IMG/VR virus record: IMGVR_UViG_3300031553_000005
Location: 1-49,222 of that record
Strand: one strand, 5' to 3'
Source of the DNA: a virus
DNA: 49,222 nucleotides
Position 1 is the stretch's first letter. Each line of letters starts with the position of its first letter. Below, one piece after another: positions 4,725-48,429 of this stretch. The notes beneath the pieces are model-generated. The model did no database searches. It was not told where the DNA came from and was given only the letters and a program-made list of their open reading frames with translations. Both the position numbers and the translations under genes were made by a program.

Positions 4725-5195
4725 ATGAACTACGACCCATCACGCGATCCTGTCTTCCGGGTCCTCCATGAGCTCTATGGAGAGTCCCGGATCAACGCCG
4801 GCATCATCCAGGAGGTCCTGGGGATGGCCCGGCGAACGGCCTTCAACCGCATGGAAGGCATCACTCAGCTGCGGCCGGGTGAGATCCTCGAGCTGAGCGT
4901 GAGGCTGGGCACGCCCCGCCTGCTCAACGCCTGGCTGCGCCACATGGGCTACCCCTACCGGATCCGGCCGGTCCTCACCGCCGATCAGGTGGCCAGACCC
5001 GAGCACATCGCCCAGGCGGAGGTCCGAGCCCTGGGCAAGGCCACTGACACCTACCGCCGCATCAACGAGATCCTGGCCGATAGCCGTGTGACCCGCGAGG
5101 AGCGAGCGGAGATCCACCGGATGGTCGAGGAGCTGGTCGATGAGACCCTGGCGGTGCCGCTGGGTGTGCTGGGGCAGGAGGAGGCCCTGGTATGA
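4725..5195 (+). CDS. Putative CII-like transcriptional regulator
   Basis: 156 aa. HTH-like IIQEVLGMARRTAFNRMEG, followed by a helical C-terminus. Sits immediately after the cro-like gene. Confidence 0.35.
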   Translation: MNYDPSRDPVFRVLHELYGESRINAGIIQEVLGMARRTAFNRMEGITQLRPGEILELSVRLGTPRLLNAWLRHMGYPYRIRPVLTADQVARPEHIAQAEVRALGKATDTYRRINEILADSRVTREERAEIHRMVEELVDETLAVPLGVLGQEEALV

Positions 5196-6938: not shown

Positions 6939-7492
6939 GGTTGGCTCCCGGGAAACCGCTACCCGTCCACCTCTGGCGACGGCTCATCGATTACGTCGAG
7001 AGACGGATCGACACAGCCGGAGACTGCTGGCTGTGGACGGGTAGTAGGAACAGGCTCGGCTATGGTCGAATCATCACGTGCGAGGGCAAGGAGAAGAGGT
7101 ATGACCTCCTTGCCCATCGTGTGGTCTACTTCCTCGCTACTGGTCATGACCCCATCGGCTTCCAGGTCTGTCATTCCTGCGATAACCCATCCTGTGTGAA
7201 TCCTGCCCACCTGTTTCTAGGGTCCGCCGCGGACAACGCTGCAGACGCTAAGGAGAAGATGCGCCACCGCCGGGGTGACGATCACGCCTTCGCGAAGCTT
7301 GACACCAAGACGGTGCTACGGGCGAGGCGGGTCTATCGCAATGGCGGCGTGAGCATGCAGGCGATAGCCGAAGAAGTAGGAATCGACCGACGGACGCTAG
7401 GTGAAGCCATCCGCGGTATCACCTGGGCGCACCTCCCCGAAGCAGTGTCCATCGAAGAACATTCCGAAAAGAGGTCATCATGCGTTGCCTAG
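6935..7492 (+). CDS. HNH endonuclease (HNH_3-type) with C-terminal HTH
   Basis: CWLWTGSRNRLGYGRI...LAHRVVYFLATG...VCHSCDNPSCVNPAHL; C-terminus MQAIAEEVGIDRRTLGEAIRG. Confidence 0.85.
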   Translation: MRLAPGKPLPVHLWRRLIDYVERRIDTAGDCWLWTGSRNRLGYGRIITCEGKEKRYDLLAHRVVYFLATGHDPIGFQVCHSCDNPSCVNPAHLFLGSAADNAADAKEKMRHRRGDDHAFAKLDTKTVLRARRVYRNGGVSMQAIAEEVGIDRRTLGEAIRGITWAHLPEAVSIEEHSEKRSSCVA

Positions 7493-8625
7493 CCACGTCT
7501 GACCTCCATCTCGGTTTTCGCCAGTTCGCGGCTACCGAGGGAGGACGTAATGCGCGTGAACTCGACGTAGAGCACGCTTGGTACCACCTGGTCGATCGCG
7601 CCGTCGAGCTGCAGCCGGATCTCATCACGATTGCAGGCGACGTGTTTCATCATCCACGTTCCGGCTTCCACGCCGTCATGGCCTACCGGGACGGGATCCG
7701 GCGCATGCACCAGAAGACCAGGGCTACGATCGTCATCGTGCAGGGAAACCACGACGCGGTCCGGACCGCTGATGCCCTCTCGCCCATCGTGATCCCGAAC
7801 GACTACGAGCGGGTCCACATCCTCACCGAGCCCGGCCGGGTGTCCTTCGAGACCCAGGCGGGGGAGAAGGTCGCTGTCGCCTGCTTCCCCTTCGTGGGGA
7901 TGGGCGAGCCGAAGACCTACCGGCTCGAGCCCGATCCCGAGTTCAACGTCAACGTCCTGCTGCTCCATGCCGCGGTGAAGTCCTCGGAGAATCCCAAGGC
8001 CCTGCCGTGGTTCTACCAGGGGCCGCACTCGCTGGATGTGGGCCGGGAGGCGGAGCGCTGGGATGTGATCGCCTGCGGCGACTTCCACGAGTACACCCGT
8101 CTCCACCCGGAGCGGGCGGTCTTCTACTCCGGGTCGATCGAGCGGACCTCGAGCAACATCTGGGACGAGCACAAGCCGAAGGGATTCGTGGTCTGCGAGA
8201 CGAAGCTCACCGGGGAGGTCTCGGTCGAGTTCTGCGAGATTCCGACCCGGATGGTCTACGACGAGACCGCCGACGACGGCGACAGCGTCGAGTGTCTGAA
8301 CCTCGGTCTCGAATCCCGGCTTGCGGATCCGTCCACCAAGGACGCGATCACCCGCCTGAAGGTCGACGCCTTCCCCCGCTCCCAGCGGGACGCCATCGAC
8401 TGGTCCCTGGTCCGCCAGCTCAAGGCCCACTGCCTGCACTTCTACCTCGACCTGCGTTTCGCCACCGACGAGAGCGCGGAGATCTCCGACCGCCGGCAGG
8501 CCCGGAGCCTCCAGGAGGAGGCCACCGAGTTCCTGGCCGGCGAGGAGGAGGCGGTGCTGGAGTGCGCCCTGGGCTACCTGCAGCCCCCGATTGAGGATCT
8601 CGAACCCGAGGAGGTGGAGGCATGA
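7480..8625 (+). CDS. sbcD: SbcD/Mre11-family metallophosphoesterase nuclease
   Basis: Calcineurin-like motifs in order: SDLHLG, AGDVFH, GNHD, LLLHA, CGDFH. Confidence 0.9.
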   Translation: MRCLATSDLHLGFRQFAATEGGRNARELDVEHAWYHLVDRAVELQPDLITIAGDVFHHPRSGFHAVMAYRDGIRRMHQKTRATIVIVQGNHDAVRTADALSPIVIPNDYERVHILTEPGRVSFETQAGEKVAVACFPFVGMGEPKTYRLEPDPEFNVNVLLLHAAVKSSENPKALPWFYQGPHSLDVGREAERWDVIACGDFHEYTRLHPERAVFYSGSIERTSSNIWDEHKPKGFVVCETKLTGEVSVEFCEIPTRMVYDETADDGDSVECLNLGLESRLADPSTKDAITRLKVDAFPRSQRDAIDWSLVRQLKAHCLHFYLDLRFATDESAEISDRRQARSLQEEATEFLAGEEEAVLECALGYLQPPIEDLEPEEVEA

Positions 8626-8924
8626 GCAAGGTCAAGTTCGCTGGGTTCACGCCCGAGGAGATGGGGCACGTCGACAAGATCACCACCCGCGCGATCCCGC
8701 TTTTCGCGAAGGTCGGCGTCCACGTCGACCGGCTTGACGTCGTGATGGACCTGGCGGCTACGCACAAGACATGCCCGCTCGACCTCGCTGCTATGGCAGA
8801 CGGCCGGGAAGAAGACTTCGCCCACGACATCGGCGGAATCCGCCGCCACCTCAACCGGATCACGGGAGAGCTCGAAGACTGCTTCGTACCTCGGTTCGCC
8901 CGCCGCACGGCGGTGCCGGTATGA
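8622..8924 (+). CDS. Conserved-looking hypothetical protein inserted between sbcD and sbcC
   Basis: 100 aa; ATGA overlaps at both ends (8622 and 8921). Confidence 0.6.
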   Translation: MSKVKFAGFTPEEMGHVDKITTRAIPLFAKVGVHVDRLDVVMDLAATHKTCPLDLAAMADGREEDFAHDIGGIRRHLNRITGELEDCFVPRFARRTAVPV

Positions 8925-11368
8925 AGCTCATCGACCTGCACCTGAAAAGCTTCCGCCAGCACCGGGATTCCTACATCCGCTTCCCCGAGGAAGGCCTGAT
9001 CGGGATCCTCGGCCCCAACGAGGGGGGCAAGTCCACCGTGCTGGAGGGGATCACCTTCGCCCTCTACGGCGCACCGGCCACCCGGGGCACCGTCGGCTCC
9101 ATCCGCTCCAACAGGGCGGTGGGCAGCGAGCAGGCCTCGGTGGAGCTGCGCTTCGAAGTGGGCGGGAAGACCTACCGGATCCGCCGGACCCAGAAGCAGG
9201 CCTGGATGTGGGAGGGTGAGGAGCAGATCGCCCGCTCCATCTCCGGGGTTAACTCCCGGGCCGCTCGCATCGTGGGGATGACTCTGGAGGAGTTCCAGTC
9301 GACCTACCTGGCAACTCAGAAGGATCTGGGCCGGCTGAAGTCCCTGGGGGGCGTGGAGCGCAGGCAGTTCGTGCTGGGGGTGGTAGGACTGCGCCGGGTC
9401 GACGAGGCGCTGCGGGCCTGCCGGGCCCGCAAGAACACCCTGGCCACCGAGCGGGAAGGCCTGGAGGCCGGCCTGGGGCCGCGTGAGCCGCTCGAGCAGA
9501 CGGTGGCAGAGGCTTCCGATGGGATCGAGAAGGCACTGGCGGCTGCTGGGGATGCCAACGACAGACTGGATGAAGCTACCGGGATTGCAGGTGATGCGAA
9601 CGACCGGCTCGCCGAGTCCACAACCCGCAAGGAGAAGTACGAGACCCTCCGTCGGCAGCAGGAGCAGGCCGGCCGGGACCAGAGCACCGCGCTCGAGGAA
9701 CTGAAGACTCTCGGCGAGCGCATCGCCCGGGCCGGGGAAGCTGTTGAGCGGATCGCCGATGCCGAGGCCCAACTGGCAGCCCTACCCGAGCTGCGGGAGC
9801 GCTATGTCGAAGGCAAGGAGGCCAAGGCCCGGGCGGAGGAGCGGAGGCGCCTGGTCCACCAGGTGGGCACCCTGGCCCAGGAGCTCGAGCAGATGCAGGG
9901 CCGGATCACCGAGCTGCGCACCCAGCTGGGGGAGGAGCCGGCCGCGGCCGACACCCTCCAGGCCCAGCTCGCCAGTCTCCAGGCCCGGCTCGAGAAGCTC
10001 AAGTCCGAACGACTCGAGCAGATCGCCCTGGCCAAGTCCAGTGCCGAGGTCGCCCTGGCCGAGGCCGAGAAGGCGGCTGCCAAAGCCTCCAAGATCGAGA
10101 AGCTGGGCACCGAGGGGGAGTGCCCGACCTGCACCCGGCCCCTGGGGGAGCACTACCGCCCCGTCCTGGAGGGTCTGCGCGAGATCGAGCGAACCCACCT
10201 GGCCGACCACAAGGATCTGGCCGGCAAGGCCCGCGAGCTCTCCATGGTGCCCGACATCGAGATGGACCTGGACCTCGAGCTCGGTCAGCTCCGCAAGCAG
10301 CTGGAAGAGGCGCAGTTGGCGGCCGAGCGTCACCGGACCGCCACGACACGCATCACCGAGATCGAGGCCGAGATCTCCCGGCGGACCGAGCAGAAGGCCG
10401 AGGTGGAGAAGACCCTGGCTGGGATCCCCAAAGCCCAGGTGGACGAGGAGGTCCTTAAGCACCAGGCGGCGCGCATCACCCAGCTGGAGGAGCTGGAACG
10501 CCGCACCGCCCAGGATCGGGCCACCGCGGCCACCCTGGAGGCCCTGGAGCAGGACCGGGCCCGGGCGGAGGAGAAACGGGCCCGGGCGGAAGCCGCTATC
10601 AACGAGCTCGATGAGGCCATCACCGGGACCGGCTTCAGCCCGATTGCCCACCAGGACCTGGTCACACAGGCCGAGTCCGCCCGCAGGAGCCACGAGGAGG
10701 CCAAGCTGGCCCAGGTGAGGGCCGAGGAGGCGCTCAAGGCCGCCCAGGAGGCCCACAGGCGCGCCAGGAAGGCCCTGGAGGACTGGGACGGCCGGGCAGG
10801 GCGCCTGCACGAGGTGGCCGAGGACCTGCGGATCCACGAGCGGACCGCGGCCCGTCTGAACGACTTCCGGACCGCCATGGCCTCCTCGATCCGGCCCGAG
10901 CTCGAGGAACTGGTCAGCGCCTTCGTCCACACGCTCACCGACGGCCGGCACGAGTCGGTCACCCTCACCGAGGACTTCGAAGTGGTCCTGCAGGAGGGAG
11001 GCACCGACGTCGAGGTCGTCTCCGGAGGGGCTGAGGACGTCACCAGCCTGGCCCTGCGCCTGGCAATCAGCCACCTGATCGCCTCCCGGGCCGGGCATCC
11101 CCTGAGCCTGCTGATCCTGGACGAGCCCTTCGGGAGCCTGGACGAGGTGCGTCGACGTAACGTGGTCGACCTGCTGCAGCACCTGCGCGGGGTCTTCGCC
11201 CAGGTCCTGGTCATCTCCCACGTCGAGGACACCAAGGACGCGGTCGACTACGCCCTGCACGTGGACTTCGACGAGGGGCGGGGGACCAGCGTGATCACGC
11301 CCAGCTGGGACATGCAGGGGCAGGAGACGGAGACAGAGCAGGTCGAGGCTGAGTTGGCCACAGCCTGA
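8921..11368 (+). CDS. sbcC: SbcC/Rad50-family SMC-like ATPase with zinc hook
   Basis: Start MKLIDLHLKSF. Walker A GPNEGGKST. Long Ala/Glu/Arg coiled coil with a central CPTC hook (10121..10132). Signature SGGAEDVTSLALRLA, Walker B LLILDEPFGSLD, and ISHV. Confidence 0.9.
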   Translation: MKLIDLHLKSFRQHRDSYIRFPEEGLIGILGPNEGGKSTVLEGITFALYGAPATRGTVGSIRSNRAVGSEQASVELRFEVGGKTYRIRRTQKQAWMWEGEEQIARSISGVNSRAARIVGMTLEEFQSTYLATQKDLGRLKSLGGVERRQFVLGVVGLRRVDEALRACRARKNTLATEREGLEAGLGPREPLEQTVAEASDGIEKALAAAGDANDRLDEATGIAGDANDRLAESTTRKEKYETLRRQQEQAGRDQSTALEELKTLGERIARAGEAVERIADAEAQLAALPELRERYVEGKEAKARAEERRRLVHQVGTLAQELEQMQGRITELRTQLGEEPAAADTLQAQLASLQARLEKLKSERLEQIALAKSSAEVALAEAEKAAAKASKIEKLGTEGECPTCTRPLGEHYRPVLEGLREIERTHLADHKDLAGKARELSMVPDIEMDLDLELGQLRKQLEEAQLAAERHRTATTRITEIEAEISRRTEQKAEVEKTLAGIPKAQVDEEVLKHQAARITQLEELERRTAQDRATAATLEALEQDRARAEEKRARAEAAINELDEAITGTGFSPIAHQDLVTQAESARRSHEEAKLAQVRAEEALKAAQEAHRRARKALEDWDGRAGRLHEVAEDLRIHERTAARLNDFRTAMASSIRPELEELVSAFVHTLTDGRHESVTLTEDFEVVLQEGGTDVEVVSGGAEDVTSLALRLAISHLIASRAGHPLSLLILDEPFGSLDEVRRRNVVDLLQHLRGVFAQVLVISHVEDTKDAVDYALHVDFDEGRGTSVITPSWDMQGQETETEQVEAELATA

Positions 11369-11937
11369 GAGAGCAGGGGGCGATGCAGAGCGGATCACTG
11401 GACAGGATCGGGAAACTTCCCGCGCCGATGCCTGAGGGCTCAGGGCGGCAGAAAACCGGCCTGTGGGCTGACACACCCGCAGGTAAACCCGTCCGCCGCC
11501 ATGACGTATCGCCCCCGATGAGCAGCGAGGGGCGGGGAGATGGCACCCGAAGCAAGGAGGGGAGCGATGCACCTATGAGAGAGCCCCGTCCCTCCAAGGA
11601 ACTTCGCACCGTGGCAGCGCGGAAAGCAGACGTGCGGGACATACGGCGGACCCGTCAGAGCGAGCCCATACGACCCATGCTGGCGGGAGACAGCCTTCGA
11701 TGCCGTATCAAGTGGGCAGCCGGAGTAGCGCCCGGCCCACGGTGCGAACTGAACATGGAGGAGGCACCCAGCGCTGGGACTCTGGGGTCCGGCAAGGACA
11801 GCGCAAGGGGCTACAAGTACGCTCCCTCCACTATTCACGCGGGGTCGTCCGAACCATCACGACTCCCGAGGCCCGCAGTTACCCACTGTCCGGCCTGGGT
11901 CCCCACGGGCGGCCCCGCACTATTGATGAGGAGTGAC
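11369..11937 (+). other. About 570 bp with no convincing coding signal (candidate structured RNA, origin or decayed gene)
   Basis: The only long + ORF (11383..) translates to a P/S/G/R-rich sequence with many codons rare elsewhere in the phage (ata, aga, cta, ttg, tca, cga, gta). A proper GAGGAG-N6-ATG start appears only at 11938. Several + strand hairpins need G-U pairs. Confidence 0.4.
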
Positions 11938-12123
11938 ATGCCAGAGGAAACCGACAGGTCCGCTCCGTGTGTCTGCGGGCATCCACGGTGGATGCACTCC
12001 ACCGGGGACTACCTGCACAGCCCATTCGGTGATGCGCCACTGACCGATGGACCGTGCGGTGGCATGAACAAGGAGGACACCGGCACCTGTTCCTGTCAGC
12101 GATTCGTTCCGGCTGACCGATGA
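11938..12123 (+). CDS. Small Cys/His-rich (zinc-binding-like) protein
   Basis: GAGGAG 6 nt upstream of the ATG; 61 aa with CVCGH...H...CGG...CSC. Confidence 0.55.
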   Translation: MPEETDRSAPCVCGHPRWMHSTGDYLHSPFGDAPLTDGPCGGMNKEDTGTCSCQRFVPADR

Positions 12124-12284
12124 AGCGCGTCTGCTGCATCTGCGGAGCCCACTTCGGCGACAAGCCGCCCCTGGACAGTGATGAGGAGACCGGGGGCATC
12201 TGCCCGAAGTGCGAGCCCGCCGAGCGGGAGCGCGTGAGAAAGGAGATCGCCGAGCATGACCGACTCACGGCACGGATGGGGTGA
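12120..12284 (+). CDS. Zn-ribbon mini-protein (54 aa), not in supplied ORF track
   Basis: ATGA overlap; MKRVCCICGAHF...GGICPKCEPAE (CxxC...CxxC). Confidence 0.5.
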   Translation: MKRVCCICGAHFGDKPPLDSDEETGGICPKCEPAERERVRKEIAEHDRLTARMG

Positions 12285-12393
12285 AGTCCTGCTGAGCGAC
12301 GGGTTCCACCGGGTGCTGTTGCTGGTCTGCGCGGTGCTGGGGCTGATCGTGCTGATCTACCAGCTCGGTCTGCCGAGAGGGTGGTGGGGATGA
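12256..12393 (+). CDS. Single-TM mini-protein (45 aa), not in supplied ORF track
   Basis: AGGAG upstream; FHRVLLLVCAVLGLIVLIYQL; its stop overlaps the next ATG (ATGA). Confidence 0.4.
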   Translation: MTDSRHGWGEVLLSDGFHRVLLLVCAVLGLIVLIYQLGLPRGWWG

Positions 12394-12596
12394 GCGATAC
12401 GAGATACAGCACGGTCGGTGGTGAAGTCTGCCGAGAGTGCGGGCGTCGGTTCAAGATGGTGTGGAGCGCACCGGATGACGTCTGGGAGCGGGTTGTCGGT
12501 GATGAGGACGGTAGCCTTTGCCCGGACTGCTTCGACCGATTGGCGGCCTTCAAAAATGTGCCGATTCGTTGGCTGTGTATGGGGACTGACCAGTGA
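12390..12596 (+). CDS. Zn-ribbon protein
   Basis: MSDTRYSTVGGEVCRECGRRF...SLCPDCFDRL (CxxC...CxxC); ATGA coupled. Confidence 0.55.
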   Translation: MSDTRYSTVGGEVCRECGRRFKMVWSAPDDVWERVVGDEDGSLCPDCFDRLAAFKNVPIRWLCMGTDQ

Positions 12597-12817
12597 CCCG
12601 CCTACTCCGCTTCCTATCTCCCCTGGCTTGGTCGAGTGGATTCCGCTGGGGGTTCAAGCTCGGCCGCCTCGCCGTCGAGATCCGGCTGGCCTACGAATAC
12701 AAGCGCCTCCGGTATGCCCCCCGCAGGACGAGGGAGGCGACCCGGGACGCCACGATGCACTTCGCCCCCGAGCGGTCGAGGCTGCTCAAGGAGATGGGGA
12801 TCGATGCAGAGGACTGA
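12593..12817 (+). CDS. Hypothetical basic protein
   Basis: GTGA overlap with previous stop; 74 aa. Confidence 0.45.
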   Translation: MTRLLRFLSPLAWSSGFRWGFKLGRLAVEIRLAYEYKRLRYAPRRTREATRDATMHFAPERSRLLKEMGIDAED

Positions 12818-33719: not shown

Positions 33720-34745
33720 ATGACAAACCAGACTCTTGGCGGGCCGATCATCACCAAGATCCCTCGCAACTTCATCCGTAACGGGGTGGTCGACCGTCGC
33801 GCGATGTATCAGGAACTCGTGGAGAACGAGGTTCTGCGCGAGGACGAGACCCGAGAGATCGAGGAGGCACTCACCCGCGTGGCAAGGCGCGACCTGGTGG
33901 CCGTGGCCGACCTGCGTCAGATGGGACTCACGGTGAACCTGCGAAACATCGGGGTGACCACCTACGAGTTCGACCGCGTCACGCCCGTAGGTGAGGCGAC
34001 GCAGTCGATGTCCATCCTCAACCTCGGCGACAGGGACCTGGTCACCTTCGCCCGCACGGCGATCCCCGTACCGGTGACTGCCTCGCAGTTCGAGCTCGAC
34101 GCCCGTAGGGCCGCTGCCGGGACTACGCTCGGTGAACCCGTGAGCCTCACGAACGTCGAGGAGCACACCCGAGCCGTGGCGGAGAAGCTGGAGGACACGC
34201 TGGTGAACGGCTCCGATGTGGTGCTGGGCTCGAACGATCTGCCCGGCTACACCAACTTCACGAGCCGTGAGCAGCTGTCCTTCTCGGACGTGGCCTGGAA
34301 CGATATCTCGGGTGCTCCCGAAGCGGCCGTGATCGATGTGCTGGCCATGCGGGCGGCGCTTCGGGAAAACGGTTACACCGGACCCTACATCGTCTATGTC
34401 CCGAGTAACTTCGACGGGACGATCGACGAGGACTACAAGTCCGAGAGCGACCGGACGCTGCGGGAACGGTTGATGTCCATCAACGGAGTCGAGCAGGTGA
34501 AGGTGCTGCCCTCCCTGGCCGACGACAACGTCCTGATGGTGCAGATGACCCGGTCGGTCGTGCAAACAGCGATCGGGCAGGACATCACCACCGTGACCTG
34601 GGACATGATGGGCGGGCTCGCGAACTACTGGGCCATCCTCGCGGTGATGACGTTTGCCCTCAAGGTCAGTGCGGCTCGCGCCCCGCTGTCCTCGGGCACA
34701 CTGCCATCTCTGACGACGGCCAGCGGTATCGCACACCTGGCCTAA
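33720..34745 (+). CDS. Major capsid protein (HK97 fold, encapsulin/linocin-like family)
   Basis: Strong SD AGGAGGAGAGAGG; 341 aa; synteny and family-like segments (NLGDRDLVTFARTAIPVPV..., YIVYVPSNF..., LMVQMTRSVVQ...). Confidence 0.75.
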   Translation: MTNQTLGGPIITKIPRNFIRNGVVDRRAMYQELVENEVLREDETREIEEALTRVARRDLVAVADLRQMGLTVNLRNIGVTTYEFDRVTPVGEATQSMSILNLGDRDLVTFARTAIPVPVTASQFELDARRAAAGTTLGEPVSLTNVEEHTRAVAEKLEDTLVNGSDVVLGSNDLPGYTNFTSREQLSFSDVAWNDISGAPEAAVIDVLAMRAALRENGYTGPYIVYVPSNFDGTIDEDYKSESDRTLRERLMSINGVEQVKVLPSLADDNVLMVQMTRSVVQTAIGQDITTVTWDMMGGLANYWAILAVMTFALKVSAARAPLSSGTLPSLTTASGIAHLA

Positions 34746-34771
34746 CCGCCAGGTATGGAAGCGACCGAAGG

Positions 34772-34798
34772 GGCACCGGGGCAGGTATGCCCGGTGCC
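34772..34798 (+). terminator. 9-bp GC hairpin after the capsid gene (partial terminator or RNA-stabilising element)
   Basis: GGCACCGGG gcaggtatg CCCGGTGCC; no clear T tract. Confidence 0.35.
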
Positions 34799-34825
34799 GA
34801 GGTATAACCCAAGTCGGAGAGAGAG

Positions 34826-41378: not shown

Positions 41379-43225
41379 TGTCCTGGCTTTCACGTTTCAT
41401 CACGGGCGCGGCGGCCCTAGCCGCAAGTTTCATCCCGGGAATCGGGCAGTTTCTCTCTCTGGGTCTGAGGATGTTCGCTCTCAATCAGGCCAAGTCCCTC
41501 ATCCCTCGGCTCACGAAGTGGACCCAGCTGGCCAGAGAGAACATCACGGACACCAAGGTCCGGGTGCCCCTGATCTATGGCCGGGCCAAGGTGGGGGTAC
41601 GCATCATCGATGTGCGGGAGAACACCTCAGGATATCTGTGGATGGTGGGAGCACTCTGTGCCGGATCACGTAGCGACGATGGGATCAGCGGCGTCCACGA
41701 ACTCTACCTGGACGAAGAGCTGGCGGTGAACTCCGGGGGCTCGGTGGTCGGGCGCTTCGATGGCAAGCTGACGAAGGATACTACCCGCACGGGCTCGTCT
41801 ACCCAGACCGTGCTCACTGCGCTGAACACGGACTTCCCGACCTCCTGGCCTGCATCCGCCCGGGGCAGGGGAGTGGCCTACGTGGCCCTCAAGCTCAAGC
41901 CCGACAAGGACACCTGGTCGTCTATCCCCGATATCACGGCCATCGTGGATGGACGGGAGGTCTACGATCCCAGGGACGAGACCTGGAAGTACTCGAACAA
42001 CCCTGCGCTCTGCATCCGGGACTACCTGCTGGACACCGTACACGGCCCGGGCCTCGACGAGAGTGAGCTCATCGACTCCGACTTCGAAGACGAGGCCGAC
42101 TACTGCGACGACCTGGTCAGTGTCCCAGACGGTGAAGGGGGCTCCACGACTCAGAAGCGCTTCACGTGCGATGGTGTGCTCGATACCGCCCGACACTGGT
42201 ATGAAAACCTGGCCGACATGGAGTCCTCGTGTCTGGGGCACGTGGTCCCGAGGGGCAATGGCAAGATCGGCTTCTACATTCGCAAGGTGAAGGCGCCCAC
42301 CTCATTCAAGCTGAACGAAGACAACATCGTCGGCGACTGGAACTTCGAGAAGGCCAAGAGCAAGGACGTCGCCAACCTCGTGCGGGCGACCTTTATCGAC
42401 CCCGACCGGGAATGGCAGCCTTTCGTGTCGCAGTTCCCCGAACTGGACGCCGCGAACCCCTACCTGACCGCCGACAATGACTTCGAGTCCACAATGGACA
42501 TCGACCTGCCGTTTACCACCGACTTCTACCGGGCCGCACAGATCGCACAAGTGATGCTCAATGAATCGCGCCAGGACCTGGCCTGTGCCCTCACCGCAAA
42601 GGAGGAAGCGCAGCAACTGGTGATCGGGGACGTGGTGCCGGTCTCTCACTCAACCCCGGGCTGGGATGAGAAGCCCATGTGGGTGGCGGGGCTGCATATC
42701 TCCCCGGCAGGCCTGGTGCGGCCCATCCTCTCCGAGTACGACGCCGCAGCCTACTCGCTGGATACCCTCTCGGACAAGGACACCACACCCGACACCAACC
42801 TTCCGGATCCGTACACGGTAGCGGCTCCCACCGGCCTGACCCTGCTGAGCGATGAGACCACGGCCCTGACCTCCGGCACCGGCGGTCCGGTTCCGCGCAT
42901 CAAGGTCACCTGGACGAACTCGACGCACCCCTGGCTGGATTACACGGAAGTCTTCGCCCGCAAGCAGGGCGACAGCGACTGGGATCCGATCGCGCGGGTG
43001 GACTCCCGGGACCCGGAACTCGTGTACGTGATGGACGTCTCGGCCGGCGAGACCTGGGAGGTGGGGATCCGGGCGGTGAACACGCTGGGCGTGAAGTCCA
43101 CGCTGGTGACCGATACCGTGGTGATCCCGAATCCCACCGAGCCTCCGCACGTCAACGACCCGCCGGACGCCCCGACCAGCGTCGAGCTGACGGTCACGCG
43201 CGGTAAGCTCGAGGTGGTGGCCTGA
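41378..43225 (+). CDS. Host-specificity/central tail fibre protein (lambda gpJ / GTA g15-like)
   Basis: NNPALCIRDYLLDTVHGPGL...FEDEADYCDDLV...KRFTCDGVL pattern; FN3-like C-terminus. Confidence 0.65.
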   Translation: MSWLSRFITGAAALAASFIPGIGQFLSLGLRMFALNQAKSLIPRLTKWTQLARENITDTKVRVPLIYGRAKVGVRIIDVRENTSGYLWMVGALCAGSRSDDGISGVHELYLDEELAVNSGGSVVGRFDGKLTKDTTRTGSSTQTVLTALNTDFPTSWPASARGRGVAYVALKLKPDKDTWSSIPDITAIVDGREVYDPRDETWKYSNNPALCIRDYLLDTVHGPGLDESELIDSDFEDEADYCDDLVSVPDGEGGSTTQKRFTCDGVLDTARHWYENLADMESSCLGHVVPRGNGKIGFYIRKVKAPTSFKLNEDNIVGDWNFEKAKSKDVANLVRATFIDPDREWQPFVSQFPELDAANPYLTADNDFESTMDIDLPFTTDFYRAAQIAQVMLNESRQDLACALTAKEEAQQLVIGDVVPVSHSTPGWDEKPMWVAGLHISPAGLVRPILSEYDAAAYSLDTLSDKDTTPDTNLPDPYTVAAPTGLTLLSDETTALTSGTGGPVPRIKVTWTNSTHPWLDYTEVFARKQGDSDWDPIARVDSRDPELVYVMDVSAGETWEVGIRAVNTLGVKSTLVTDTVVIPNPTEPPHVNDPPDAPTSVELTVTRGKLEVVA

Positions 43226-46200
43226 TGTCCATCGAGCTGCAGATCACGACGTTCGACTTCTGGATCGAGGTCGAGTACGAGAAGGACGCCCTGTTCGACA
43301 CATTCGAGTTCCGCGTGTACGAGGACGGCGGCGACCCCGAGAGGGCCGAGATACTGAAGTCCGAGGGGTTCGGGAGTGACCCGTACACGATCTTCATGCC
43401 GCGGCAGCGGAAGGGGACCGGGATCGGCGAGGACTGGTATGCCGACGTCCGGGTGCGGAACGTGGACGGGCAGGTCTCGGACTGGGCGTCGAGCGCGAAG
43501 GAGACCGGGACCGGGGACGACATCTCGGTGCTCGAGCAGGAGGGGATCTATGTCGCGGCCGACTTCATCACCCGGGACGGCGCGACCCCGCTGATCGACG
43601 ACTGGGACGCCGGCCCGTTCGAGATCCGGGCGGAGACCTTCGAGAGTGACGTGATTACCGGCACGGCTCCCCTCACGGTCGCCTCGACTACGCTGGTCTC
43701 CAACCTCAACGCCGACCTGCTGGACGGGCAGGAGGGAACCCACTTCCTAGACTCGGCCAACTTCACCGGGACTGACTGGACGGACCTGACAGACGCGGGA
43801 GCCACAACGCTCCACAAGCATGACCACGGTGGGTTAGACGGTCTAGGAGACGACGACCACACGCAGTACCTCCTGGCGAACGCTACTCGCGGAGTGAGTG
43901 CGAATTGGGATATCGGGGACTACCAACTCCGGGCCAAGCAGTTCTACTCGGATACGGATGGAGCAACAGGTGGGATTCTCCTCGGTAGCGATACACAGTT
44001 TTATCAGAGCGCAAGCAACACGATATACACGCCGGATGCTCTGGGGGTGGGTGGGGTTGCCTCTTTTGGGCACTCTTTGTCCATAACGGATGCCACGGAT
44101 ACAAAACTATATCTCCGCAGTCCCGGTGGCTCTGGAAACACTCAGATTATTTTAGAGGACAATGACGGTACGGATAGGTGGTCGTTCGTACAATATGACG
44201 AGGGAGGACTCCTTCGCCTATACAACTTTACCCTGTCTGGTGCCCACGTAGACTTCAACCTTGACGGCACAACCGATTTTGAAGGCGGGAATGTTTCTCT
44301 AGGCACGCACTCTCTCTTGTTCGGCACCTTCGGTAGTGAAGATGTCAACCTCTACCGTAGTGCTGCTAACGTACTCAAGACAGATGATTCGTTCATCGTG
44401 GGCGGCGACGTGACGGTTGGGGACGACCTGTTCCTTAACACCGATGCGGCCAATATCTATATCGGTGCTGACGACGATTTGCAGATCACCCACAGTGGGA
44501 CCGGCGGGACCATCAACAGCCTGACTGGGGGTCTGTCGCTAAAGTCTGTCGCCAGCCTGCACCTCCAGGACGCGACCGCCCAGAACATCTACGTGTTCCA
44601 GGACCTCACCAGTGGCAACCCAGTTATTGACTTCTTCGGATGGGACTCTGGGTCGGGCTCACAGAAGTACGGGGAATTGGGGGTCAACTCCAGCGGAGAG
44701 GCGTTCTTCCAGTACCAAAACAAAGCGAATCTTCGGCTCAGGAGTTACACGATATTGGAGACGGATGCTGGAAGTTCTATGTACTTCGACGCCGGGAACC
44801 TGTTTACATGGCGTGATGTAGACGATGGCAAGGCCACCCGCATGAGCCTCGACAGCGCGACGGGTCTGCTGACCGTCACGGGTAAGCACATTGATTCTAC
44901 TGCCGAGACGTTGCAGCACTGGGCGTTGGATGAGGACACGAATAGTTATCTGAGGGTTGGGAATATTACTGGCATTAATGCAATGTTCAAGCCCATGATT
45001 TATGGCCGACAGAGTGGGGTAGGCGAAGCACTTTTCTTTGTAGGCGCAACGACTACTGACACAGGTGTTCTTGGCGCCATTGCTTTCGATGGGCGACTTG
45101 TTGCTGCGCCACTTGCGACTCGCCCAATCATGACAATAGCGAACTACGGGACAAAGAAATGGACGCTTTCTGCCAGTGGTGCTGTATGGATGACAAACAA
45201 TCTTTATATGCCCGGCCTCGACATCGGCTCCACGGCGAGTGAGATAGGGAACATCTATCAGGGAGACTCCAAGGTTATTTACTGGGGTGCCGACCAAGAT
45301 GCCTACGCTTTTCACGATGGCTCCAACTTCTATCTAAAGAACTACACCGGGGAAACCCGGTTCTGGATGGGGGCCGAGACGGCCCTGACGATGGTGAAGG
45401 ACGGTGCCGTCACCCTCTACTGGAACAATACACCGAAGTTCGCCACGGCCACGGGCGGCGTCAGCGTCACGGGTTCGATCACCACGCCGGCGACGACCGA
45501 CCTGACGCTCGCGCCGACCGGCGACCTGATCCTCGACCCGGCCGGCGGGGAGACGTTCGTCGACGGGACGCTGGTCTCGGACGAGACGTTCGCGTCCGGG
45601 GTGTTCGGCTCCGGGTGGCGCGTCTCGAAGGTCAGCGACGAGTGGTCGGCCGAGTTCGACCGGCTGACGGTGCGGGGCACCCTCGAGGCCTTCGTCTTCA
45701 AGAAGCACATCGTGCAGGCGTCGAACGCCCTGCTCCTGGTGACGGATTCCTGCAAGCTCGACGACGACGTCACGGCGATCCAGACGGCCCTGACGGTCGT
45801 GGAGAACACGCTGGCCGCGAACGACGTCGTGCTGATCCAGGACGAGATCGGCGGGAACATCTACCGCGAGATCGTGACGGTGACCTCGGTCGCAGGGGAC
45901 ACGGTCAACGTCACGCGCGCGGTCGTCGGCACCGCCCGGGCCTGGCCCGGCGGGACGGTGCTGACCCGGATCGGGAACACCGCGACGGGAGCCAGGCAGG
46001 GCTCGATCCTGCTCGACGCGGGCACGGCGAACGCACCGTTCATCGACATCCTCGGCGTCGAGGACACGAGCGACTTCAGCGCGACCTACACCGAGTCGGT
46101 CACGAACGCCATCGGGAAGGTCAAGGTCCGGCTCGGCCAGCTCTCGGGGATCACCGACGCCGCCGTCGGCCTGTCCGGCTCGGACGAGTTCGGGCTGTAT

Positions 46201-48429
46201 GCGTCGAACGCGTACCTCAAGGGCCGGCTGCGGGCCACCCTGATCGAGACGGCCGCGTCCGGCCAGCGGGTGGAGATCGACGGCACGGAGAACGAGCTGA
46301 CGATCTACGATGGCGACGACAACGCGTGGATCGGCCTCGGGAAGGTGTTGCCGGGCGACGACTTCGGGCTGGAACTCGGCTACCTGGGGATGAGCGCGTC
46401 CACGGTAGTCGCGTACGTCCACGGCAGGATGGTCGTCAGCGACCTGTTCGCGTACACCACGGTCATCAACAACGACGCCGTCGGCACGCTCCAGGCGGAC
46501 TTTTACTCCAACCAGGCGGACGACATCCTGTTCGATGCCGCCCACTTCTCCGTCACCGACGGGACGGACACGCACTTCTACTTCGACACCGGTTCGGGCG
46601 AGTTCCAGGTGTCCGGGTACGTCACGTTCATGGACGGGGCGACGCGCCTGGGGTTCCTGACCGACAACGAGGTCGACATCGGTGAGTCGGACCACCGGGC
46701 GCGGTGGATCTACGCGTACGACGGCAGCTTCGCGGACGACCTCTTCGTCGGGGACGATATCGTGATGGGGGCCGCGATCGCCGAGATCCGGATGGACACC
46801 GCGGACGGCTCGGACAACAAGGGACTCTCGATCGCCGGCGGCGGGACCGCGGGCAGCACGCGGGGCGCGGACTTCTACCTCTACGGGAACGAGCACGCCT
46901 CGCACCCCGGCAGGATATTCCTACGCACCGGCGCGATCGTCGGGACGTACATGGAGTTCGAGGTCAACGGGACGAAGTTCTGGATGGACGAGTCGGACTT
47001 CTACTCGGACTCCGTGCACAACCTGGGGCAGTCGGGTAACTATTTCGGCACGGCTTACCTCACCACCGTCGACCTCGGCACCGACACGATAGAGGATGGC
47101 GACCCGACGGACTGGAACGCGGCTTACGGGTGGGGCGACCACGCGGAGGCCGGATACGCCCCGGCGGCGAGCCCCACGTTCACCGGCACGGTTACGATCC
47201 CCTCGACGGCGGACGACGCGACCTACACCGGGATCGTCACCAACGACGGCGGGGTGCTCAAGTACCGGACCAAGGCCCAGATGCTCTCCGACATCGCCGC
47301 CCTGCCGCTCGCCGGCGGCACGATGGACGGCGACATCGACCTTGATGGGAACAGCCTGGCGGCCGCGCTCAACGTGACCATGACCGGCTACCTGGACGTC
47401 GGATCGTTCGCGTACTTTGCTGAGTACCTCTACCACACCGAGGACTCGAACACCTACATCCGGTTCTTGACCGACACGGTTGAGATCTCGGCCGGTGGCC
47501 ACGTGCTGACGCTCGACGATGACGGACTGTCGTGGAACTGGGCCGTTGGTATCACGGTCGGTAGCTCCGACCCGATGACCGTCAGCATGTCGGGCGCGTG
47601 GGATGACCAGGTGATTAACCCGATAAGGATGCGAGGAACGGTGTCCGGCGGCGCGGACATCGGGTTCGGGGCCTCGCTCGACTTCGACCTCGAGAACGCA
47701 GCCGACACCGGCTACGTCGAGGACGTGGCCAGGATCGCGGCCGTATGGACCGACGTGACGGACTCGGCCGAGCACGCCCGGCTGGAGTTGTGGGGCATGG
47801 CCGACGGCGACTCCGAGTTGTTCGCGATCTTCGAGGACGGGGACGTCGCGTTCTTCGCGGGTACTGCATTCGAGGGCTGCTTTACTCATGAGAACACGGC
47901 CGACCGGATCTACACCTTCCCGGACAAGGCCGGCACCGTGGCCATGACGAGCGACATCTCGGAGGCCACCGCCGACGTGTGGATCCCGCTCGGACCCTGG
48001 CAGGACGCGAAGGCCACCGGCACGGGCACGGCCGCGACGAGTCCGACCTACACGACGAGCTGGAGCAAGCATCTCAATCTATCCCCTGATGACACCGGCG
48101 AGATACTGGTGGCCGAGGTCCTATATGTGCACGACGACTCTCACTCCACCATCCGCATGCGATACGCGGCCTGGATAACCGGAGACACGTTCAAGGCAAC
48201 CTACCGCGTCCGGTTCAAGGTGGACGGAGTCGAGAAGTTCTACGACGCCATCGCGGAGGAGACCGAGACGAACCTCTACTATGACTGGCCGATATCGGGC
48301 ATGACGGCGGGCGTCGGCTATGCCCTACAGATGACGATCCGAGGAACGACGGATGCGCTGTGGGACGGGGATGACGTGTACTTCCGGCACAACCCGAAGA
48401 AGACCATGTTCTACGCAAATGCGGCGTGA
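43225..48429 (+). CDS. Giant tail fibre (1734 aa), compositionally mosaic
   Basis: Fibre motifs SNLNADLLDGQEGTHF, TTLHKHDHGGLDGLGDDDHTQYLL, RIYTFPDKAGTVAMTSD; internal low-GC block from about 43.9 to 45.35 kb. Confidence 0.8.
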   Translation: MSIELQITTFDFWIEVEYEKDALFDTFEFRVYEDGGDPERAEILKSEGFGSDPYTIFMPRQRKGTGIGEDWYADVRVRNVDGQVSDWASSAKETGTGDDISVLEQEGIYVAADFITRDGATPLIDDWDAGPFEIRAETFESDVITGTAPLTVASTTLVSNLNADLLDGQEGTHFLDSANFTGTDWTDLTDAGATTLHKHDHGGLDGLGDDDHTQYLLANATRGVSANWDIGDYQLRAKQFYSDTDGATGGILLGSDTQFYQSASNTIYTPDALGVGGVASFGHSLSITDATDTKLYLRSPGGSGNTQIILEDNDGTDRWSFVQYDEGGLLRLYNFTLSGAHVDFNLDGTTDFEGGNVSLGTHSLLFGTFGSEDVNLYRSAANVLKTDDSFIVGGDVTVGDDLFLNTDAANIYIGADDDLQITHSGTGGTINSLTGGLSLKSVASLHLQDATAQNIYVFQDLTSGNPVIDFFGWDSGSGSQKYGELGVNSSGEAFFQYQNKANLRLRSYTILETDAGSSMYFDAGNLFTWRDVDDGKATRMSLDSATGLLTVTGKHIDSTAETLQHWALDEDTNSYLRVGNITGINAMFKPMIYGRQSGVGEALFFVGATTTDTGVLGAIAFDGRLVAAPLATRPIMTIANYGTKKWTLSASGAVWMTNNLYMPGLDIGSTASEIGNIYQGDSKVIYWGADQDAYAFHDGSNFYLKNYTGETRFWMGAETALTMVKDGAVTLYWNNTPKFATATGGVSVTGSITTPATTDLTLAPTGDLILDPAGGETFVDGTLVSDETFASGVFGSGWRVSKVSDEWSAEFDRLTVRGTLEAFVFKKHIVQASNALLLVTDSCKLDDDVTAIQTALTVVENTLAANDVVLIQDEIGGNIYREIVTVTSVAGDTVNVTRAVVGTARAWPGGTVLTRIGNTATGARQGSILLDAGTANAPFIDILGVEDTSDFSATYTESVTNAIGKVKVRLGQLSGITDAAVGLSGSDEFGLYASNAYLKGRLRATLIETAASGQRVEIDGTENELTIYDGDDNAWIGLGKVLPGDDFGLELGYLGMSASTVVAYVHGRMVVSDLFAYTTVINNDAVGTLQADFYSNQADDILFDAAHFSVTDGTDTHFYFDTGSGEFQVSGYVTFMDGATRLGFLTDNEVDIGESDHRARWIYAYDGSFADDLFVGDDIVMGAAIAEIRMDTADGSDNKGLSIAGGGTAGSTRGADFYLYGNEHASHPGRIFLRTGAIVGTYMEFEVNGTKFWMDESDFYSDSVHNLGQSGNYFGTAYLTTVDLGTDTIEDGDPTDWNAAYGWGDHAEAGYAPAASPTFTGTVTIPSTADDATYTGIVTNDGGVLKYRTKAQMLSDIAALPLAGGTMDGDIDLDGNSLAAALNVTMTGYLDVGSFAYFAEYLYHTEDSNTYIRFLTDTVEISAGGHVLTLDDDGLSWNWAVGITVGSSDPMTVSMSGAWDDQVINPIRMRGTVSGGADIGFGASLDFDLENAADTGYVEDVARIAAVWTDVTDSAEHARLELWGMADGDSELFAIFEDGDVAFFAGTAFEGCFTHENTADRIYTFPDKAGTVAMTSDISEATADVWIPLGPWQDAKATGTGTAATSPTYTTSWSKHLNLSPDDTGEILVAEVLYVHDDSHSTIRMRYAAWITGDTFKATYRVRFKVDGVEKFYDAIAEETETNLYYDWPISGMTAGVGYALQMTIRGTTDALWDGDDVYFRHNPKKTMFYANAA

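Follow-up and report, generated by a model that had tools for sequence, protein, structure and literature searches.

What occupies the 569 nucleotides that separate two gene modules in the early operon of a temperate phage is the question raised by this locus. The window analyzed here, meaning the whole stretch of 49,222 nucleotides, is a complete 49.2-kb IMG/VR virus record whose ends are 127-nt direct terminal repeats; the phage DNA came from salt-marsh metagenomes, and an integrase gene is located at ~2-3 kb on the minus strand. In the early operon a recombination module (annealase, HNH, sbcD, DUF6874 and sbcC) lies upstream and a run of mini-protein genes lies downstream, while the stretch in between (11369-11937, + strand) displayed no codon periodicity, no Rfam match and no homologue. 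The gap is most likely a fast-changing spacer between the two gene modules with some local RNA folding, and our preferred, still tentative explanation is that of a non-coding inter-module spacer which, if active at all, acts in cis on the mRNA. Intercistronic spacers and leaders in mosaic slots of phage genomes are already known as a kind of element; the present example has no relatives.

Both limits of the gap were correct as initially described, with the sbcC stop codon (TGA, 11366-11368) at one side and, at the other, the next ATG with a GAGGAG at 11938; the distance between that GAGGAG, the Shine-Dalgarno sequence of the downstream gene (11928-11933, + strand), and its ATG is 4 nt and not 6 as had been given. 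We placed sbcC at 8921-11368 (+ strand), in an 815-aa form with Pfam matches to SMC_N, AAA_23 and SbcC_Walker_B, a start supported by the gene call on L013, a separately assembled contig which is 100% identical to the window over 8.8 kb. The 8921 start is favoured by the gene callers and by all the relatives (794-833 aa), and it overlaps the DUF6874 gene by 4 nt; the 865-aa ORF starting at 8771 is probably too long. The genes called on L013 overlap by 4-29 nt throughout, which bears out the earlier remark that the operon is otherwise free of gaps and makes the 569-nt hole exceptional. Contigs of other samples match positions 11528-11811 with zero differences, thus the sequence is not an assembly artefact or a chimera; the contig cover from other runs has holes at 11410-11530 and 11840-12020, and these carry no evidential weight. 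SbcC relatives at 31-38% identity come almost all from Gemmatimonadota MAGs, which makes that phylum, for which few phages have been described, the likely host.

The coding signal ends abruptly at the sbcC stop, GC3 collapsing at 11369 from 0.87-0.97 in sbcC to 0.6-0.72 in every phase. A chi2 of base by codon position, a measure that needs no codon table, was 6.2 (p 0.41) over the 185 codons of the gap, whereas 88 windows of 555 nt taken from real genes all reached at least 27.6, with a median of 93.5. Periodicity was absent from every 180-nt sub-window of the gap as well, and the aperiodic run to which it belongs (11251-12240) is the longest of the genome, spanning 28 windows versus 15 for the runner-up. 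Since periodicity is wholly absent, a conventional protein gene in the gap is very unlikely and a recent gene wreck is unlikely; the decayed gene proposed as one candidate by the preliminary description had to be judged in the same way, given that no sub-window retains residual periodicity and six-frame searches returned no relic. The description of the region as apparently non-coding proved right: it lacks periodicity, it has no homologue in any frame, and no frame is consistent between the two alleles discussed below.

Codon usage pointed in the same direction. The codons reported as rare in neighbouring genes were indeed found among the 185 gap codons (ATA twice, AGA, CTA, TTG, TCA three times, CGA four times and GTA twice), while the 815 codons of sbcC include ATA and TCA 0 times, CGA 3 times and GTA once. 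The codon score of the gap frame was -0.15, against 0.63 +/- 0.20 (mean) for confident genes. However, the real 61-aa gene at 11938 also scores low (-0.22), thus codon usage alone cannot decide.

The main rival of the spacer reading is a young or unconstrained translated ORF, ahead of inert DNA, a new large RNA and a DNA site, in that order. Such an ORF would begin at ATG 11383, coupled to sbcC termination, and would encode a disordered basic protein of ~185 aa, which in this strain would run in frame into the Cys-rich mini-protein to give a 246-aa fusion; selection would act on the open frame or on the act of translation (e.g. polarity avoidance), not on the amino-acid sequence. We consider it unlikely, although the least so of the alternatives. 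As had been noted, 11383-12123 (+ strand, 246 aa) is the sole long sense ORF across the gap; it is called by automatic gene finders, and its ATG, 15 nt past the sbcC stop, is preceded by a G-rich stretch. The frame in phase with the gene at 11938 has zero stops over ~190 codons, as compared with 3-6 in each of the other five; the chance of an open frame, estimated from 20,000 dinucleotide shuffles, was 0.0076 in phase, 0.023 for any sense frame and 0.098 for any of the six. This stop-free in-phase frame (P 0.0076) supports translation and is not predicted by a pure spacer, and the operon being otherwise without non-coding gaps and the flat composition of the real gene at 11938 also speak for the young ORF. 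Against it stand the absence of periodicity (chi2 of 6.2, below every one of the real-gene windows) and the low codon score, together with the results of the homology searches.

Residues 1-189 of the ORF found no homologue among 1.84 billion representatives or in the 5.8-billion set, in searches that took in shorter and similar length classes, and the public protein sets contain the 246-aa ORF as this one sequence only. No match was obtained with Pfam in five gap reading frames (three sense and two antisense ORFs) or with PHROG in four of the five gap reading frames searched, and tblastn of the 246-aa ORF versus phages gave nothing; the ESM Atlas model of the ORF has a pLDDT of 0.49. Among the 1.84 billion representatives only residues 190-246 match anything, namely P0122 (79 aa), with 72% identity over 57 residues, from which it follows that the real gene is 11938-12123 (+ strand), encoding a 61-aa Cys/His-rich mini-protein. 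Its strong GAGGAG and its ATG stand at the exact start of the P0122 homology, a further point against the longer frame, and in P0122's own contig an unrelated overlapping gene lies directly upstream of the P0122 gene. In its open frame called by gene finders, lack of homologues and low predicted order the gap is similar to phage ORFan genes and disordered mini-proteins; however, ORFans of GC-rich phages retain codon-position bias, of which the gap has none. For annotation this has a practical value, as gene finders call a 246-aa protein that is already in public protein sets and of which only the last 61 residues are supported; should the open frame be translated, it would offer a rare snapshot of a coding frame without a codon signature.

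A single close strain was available for comparison, split over short contigs that cover 54 nt (L005) and ~75 nt (L011/L012) of the gap in one other allele. Contig L005 has 1 mismatch against window positions 8574-11259, followed by 16 mismatches in 110 nt plus indels, and it covers the first 54 nt of the gap, where it has indels of 3 and 6 nt; L011 and L012 start at the equivalent of 11860, are 74% identical to the window as far as the next gene, and are 99.7% identical from 12121 onward. These breakpoints place the gap within an island of ~860 nt (~11260-12120, comprising the sbcC tail, the gap and the first small gene) which was exchanged by recombination between two otherwise near-identical strains, with boundaries at ~11260 and 12121.

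The substitutions between the alleles argue against a protein. At the 5' end of the gap 14 substitutions were counted in 45 nt, distributed 5/6/3 over the codon positions, and at the 3' end the perfectly conserved blocks CAGTTACCCA and GGCGGCCCCGCA are spaced 22 nt in one allele versus 27 nt in the other, thus lying in different frames; in L011, moreover, every one of the three frames is closed by a stop in the 12 nt before its next gene. Codon-periodic conservation of the 246-aa frame, which the preliminary description had named as contrary to its proposal, did not appear, as over the outer 45-75 nt of the one allele compared the changes were not codon-like. In favor of the translated frame, both the ATG at 15 nt from the sbcC stop and the G-rich stretch preceding it are retained in L005, whose 6-nt indel is in-frame. 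Divergence at the gap ends (26-31%) is comparable to that at third positions of the sbcC tail (~22%), which indicates that constraint is weak.

In the small gene that follows, the two strains carry unrelated mini-protein genes in the same place (window 11938-12120 vs L011 85-273; 61 aa Cys/His-rich vs 62 aa), and the exchange has its endpoint exactly at the start codon of the gene that comes after them, which is ATG in one of the strains and GTG in the other. An exact look-up of the 62-aa protein of L011 returned L011 and L012 only. No relative came out of IMG/VR scans that used SbcC alone, conserved blocks of the gap or words specific to an allele, a single 17-mer match (L014) being due to chance, and a single metagenome scan with the 3' blocks recovered L011 only, plus 7 chance matches. 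A 185-nt contig (X9) from a 2023 marine-sediment metatranscriptome library carries the other allele's sbcC tail and covers 11199-11375 only, and is for both reasons uninformative on expression of the gap; it reveals that a relative is present in another study and habitat, while transcription is not demonstrated by it.

The position of the gap exactly within a recombination-swapped island, and the near-neutral divergence of its ends, fit with functionless DNA, that is, either the remains of illegitimate or homeologous recombination at a mosaic junction or the wreck of a very old gene, which deletion has yet to remove. The comparison with relatives, in which the slot proved variable, is in line with this possibility as well. 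Among the relatives whose SbcC is 35-50% identical, the usual arrangement is a small gene overlapping the sbcC stop. The gap itself is specific to this lineage: nothing similar to it, as DNA or in six frames, was found beside SbcC in 9 metagenome contigs, 11 viral contigs and 80 loci of Gemmatimonadota and other genomes, no similar DNA exists among GenBank phages, and a comparison with 401 Gemmatimonadota genomes gave one 35-nt match only (L118). This match lies inside an unannotated 406-aa ORF, with 9 of 12 residues in common with one frame, and was judged to be chance.

Non-coding stretches do occur at the same position in other members of the group. Both L002 (identical to L107) and L104, which are IMG/VR and metagenome contigs with SbcC 43-45% identical, have an aperiodic spacer of ~210-255 nt after sbcC, with stops in all frames, whose first 95 nt are 84% conserved and are followed by frame-breaking indels; L111 has an aperiodic stretch after sbcC too. 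The group thus shows a recurring non-coding and variable slot behind sbcC, without sequence conservation between lineages. The L002/L107/L104 spacer resembles the gap of the window in position, in lacking periodicity and in having a GC-rich hairpin near its 5' end, but it is shorter, has no stop-free frame, folds unexceptionally (z ~ -1) and bears no detectable sequence or covariance-model similarity to the gap. When the first 120-140 nt after sbcC were folded in ten relatives, no exceptional structure was found in common.

The ORFs located right after sbcC in the nearest relatives (L002 8463-8720, 85 aa; L103 7433-7684, 83 aa) are low-complexity, basic and rich in Gly/Ser/Lys/Arg, that of L103 having a normal GC3 (0.83). 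Small low-complexity basic ORFs in this slot count for the young translated frame; the one of L002, however, is broken by indels in L104, for which reason it is probably not a gene, and this counts against.

Functionless DNA is further favoured by the lack of any homologue, motif or repeat in the gap, although we hold it to be distinctly unlikely. Phage genomes are compact and useless DNA is lost from them quickly; chance would have to act twice and independently, at ~2-3% each, to yield both the open frame and a folding window in the top 0.15%; the missing residual periodicity is not that of a recent wreck; and a hairpin is kept across the alleles despite an indel, as described below.

The idea favoured by the preliminary description was a large structured RNA, here understood as a free-standing non-coding RNA of ~570 nt of a class not yet described, and we find it improbable. 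The GC content of the gap is flat at 0.66, the level of coding DNA, in contrast to 0.53 in the other aperiodic stretches of the genome (3241-3900 and 31381-31920), which would fit with such an RNA, as would the retention of both gap ends in the diverged allele; on the other hand, the near-neutral divergence of those ends would not. Rfam at gathering score gave nothing over the whole window, and cmscan of 10800-12600 at E<=10, the check that had been suggested, matched neither GOLLD, ROOL and HEARO nor group I/II introns, the only hits being sub-threshold chance matches to unrelated small families. ARAGORN detected 0 tRNA/tmRNA genes. Neither strand carries a promoter-like site and the + strand of 10800-12700 carries no terminator-like one, in a scan that is blind to the U-less terminators of GC-rich bacteria, so a free-standing RNA would have no such signals of its own.

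Folding gave a divided picture. The four hairpins quoted in the preliminary description are all present where it placed them, and perfect long-range inverted repeats of 12 nt and 9 nt, each enclosing ~122 nt, are in keeping with a large RNA; however, the gap as a whole folds with z -1.5 on the + strand and +0.24 on the - strand, its middle domains reaching z -1.3, -1.5 and -0.4. Among these, the central domain (11603-11748, + strand), closed by the perfect 12-nt inverted repeat (11603-11614 with 11737-11748), is unexceptional with z -1.28, and the central ~300 nt of the gap display no sign of function. A large structured RNA was thus not supported in the form proposed; two end domains alone, of ~120-145 nt, are unusually stable on the sense strand, and these also count in its favor.

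The 5' domain (11374-11518, + strand, z -4.69) forms a three-way junction, and its closing helix of 11 bp (11376-11386 with 11506-11516) starts 8 nt past the sbcC stop. The MFE structure of this domain makes up 0.2 of the ensemble and recurs within the whole-gap MFE, and the domain ranks 3rd of 2046 in an unbiased genome-wide scan of 145-nt windows, with z -2.76 on the minus strand. Both ATG 11383 and its G-run are buried in the closing helix, which argues against their use for translation. A small hairpin, CGGGA-AACU-UCCCG, keeps its stem in L005 with a changed loop. The 3' domain (11820-11937, + strand, z -3.94, compared with -0.94 on the - strand) contains a 13-bp helix (11839-11851 with 11906-11918), also present in the whole-gap MFE, and a CUCC-type anti-SD pairing with GAGGAG. 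This pairing with the ribosome-binding site varies with the folding window, the site being free in the whole-gap fold.

Separate folds of window 11860-11937 and of L011 1-84, with their alignment, showed that the hairpin at 11865-11900 (+ strand) is kept in the second allele (L011 8-44), where the 5-nt insertion pairs with bases that are loop in the window and the 11865-11900 stem is lengthened. Immediately 5' of this hairpin, both alleles have a CUCC-type sequence able to pair with the downstream gene's GAGGA(G).

The limits of the domains were chosen after the fold was seen, and among coding windows 7009-7153 has z -4.1 and 34657-34801 has z -3.9, so that the stability of the end domains belongs to the tail of the genome distribution and is not beyond it. 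Covariance models, one per end domain and each built from a single sequence, had no significant match in 48 related and comparison loci besides the window itself; the 3'-domain model gave a weak partial-length match to allele L011 (16.5 bits, E 0.25). The failure to find a related element in those loci, or by sequence in the 401 Gemmatimonadota genomes, tells against a large RNA. GOLLD, ROOL and HEARO are RNAs of 400-800 nt often found in prophages (Rfam; PMC5737381; bioRxiv 10.1101/2024.12.08.627333). The gap shares with them the size class, a coding-like GC content and the lack of an ORF signal, and differs from them in having no covariance-model match at any threshold, ordinary whole-region folding and no conserved relatives. 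A more specific form, quite improbable in our estimation, is that of a new lineage-restricted phage RNA of ~570 nt with 3-4 domains, each of 120-150 nt and closed by a helix. Processing of the early transcript of a Gemmatimonadota phage would release it, after which it would work in trans or serve the downstream mini-protein genes as a sensing leader.

The remaining proposal was a DNA site on which the neighbouring SbcCD/annealase module would act, for instance an origin of replication or a site for recombination or packaging. Its vicinity to recombination genes and the perfect 12-nt inverted repeat would be expected of such a site; nevertheless, the gap has no iterons, no AT-rich unwinding stretch, no long palindrome and no GC-skew shift, the genome ends, being the 127-nt direct repeats, are far from it, and the folding advantage is strand-specific, which is not predicted for DNA sites. 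No repeat families or arrays, CRISPR-like or tandem, were detected in the gap, the only repeats besides the 12-nt inverted one being short and two-copy. We therefore regard a DNA site as very improbable.

Weighing these rivals (a translated frame without periodicity, junk that needs two oddities, and a large RNA that lacks family, stability, signals and relatives), we prefer, tentatively, a non-coding spacer whose ends would act in cis. On this reading the 569 nt would be transcribed, would lack conventional protein coding and would space the recombination module (annealase, HNH, sbcD, sbcC) from the mini-protein genes; the slot they occupy is one that recombination exchanges between strains and that varies across the phage group. 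From their placement we infer cis-regulatory roles for the end domains: the 5' domain, 8 nt after the sbcC stop, could end, process or stabilize the sbcC message, with the first AUG after that stop hidden in it, and in the 3' domain CUCC-type sequences might pair with the ribosome-binding site of the gene at 11938, by which we propose that translation of this gene would be uncoupled from sbcC. Against the spacer reading, in addition to the open frame, count the ordinary whole-gap fold, the coding windows with similar z, the near-neutral divergence of the gap ends, the lack of covariance-model relatives and of a promoter or terminator, and the window dependence of the pairing with the ribosome-binding site.

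In phage early operons, as at the T7 RNase III sites and in lambda sib retroregulation, structured RNA between genes of one transcript sets message ends, stability or downstream translation. By analogy, the gap would resemble these elements in that one stable domain directly follows a stop codon and another covers the next ribosome-binding site; the T7 and lambda elements, however, are single hairpins of ~50-100 nt with mapped cleavage, while the gap is 569 nt long. If it is true that the end domains control message ends or translation, the locus would illustrate module uncoupling in a GC-rich phage in a simple form. The gap also points to a variable slot behind sbcC that recombination swaps, in a phage group that is poorly known and probably of Gemmatimonadota. 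Neither such control nor a translated open frame would, short of experiments, alter current thinking.

Some minor observations were made elsewhere in the genome and among the protein matches. Window 7009-7153 (+ strand), within the HNH endonuclease gene, is the most stable composition-corrected 145-nt RNA window of the genome, its MFE structure making up 17% of the ensemble, and further strongly folding windows are found at 4753-4897 (+ strand) and 34657-34801 (- strand). The unrelated repeat protein P0123 (556 aa) has seven matches to the Cys-rich mini-protein (E 3e-5), which are probably low-complexity noise. Finally, within 43801-45360, inside a late gene encoding 1734 aa (43225-48429), two stretches of 52% GC without periodicity look like foreign or fast-evolving inserts.
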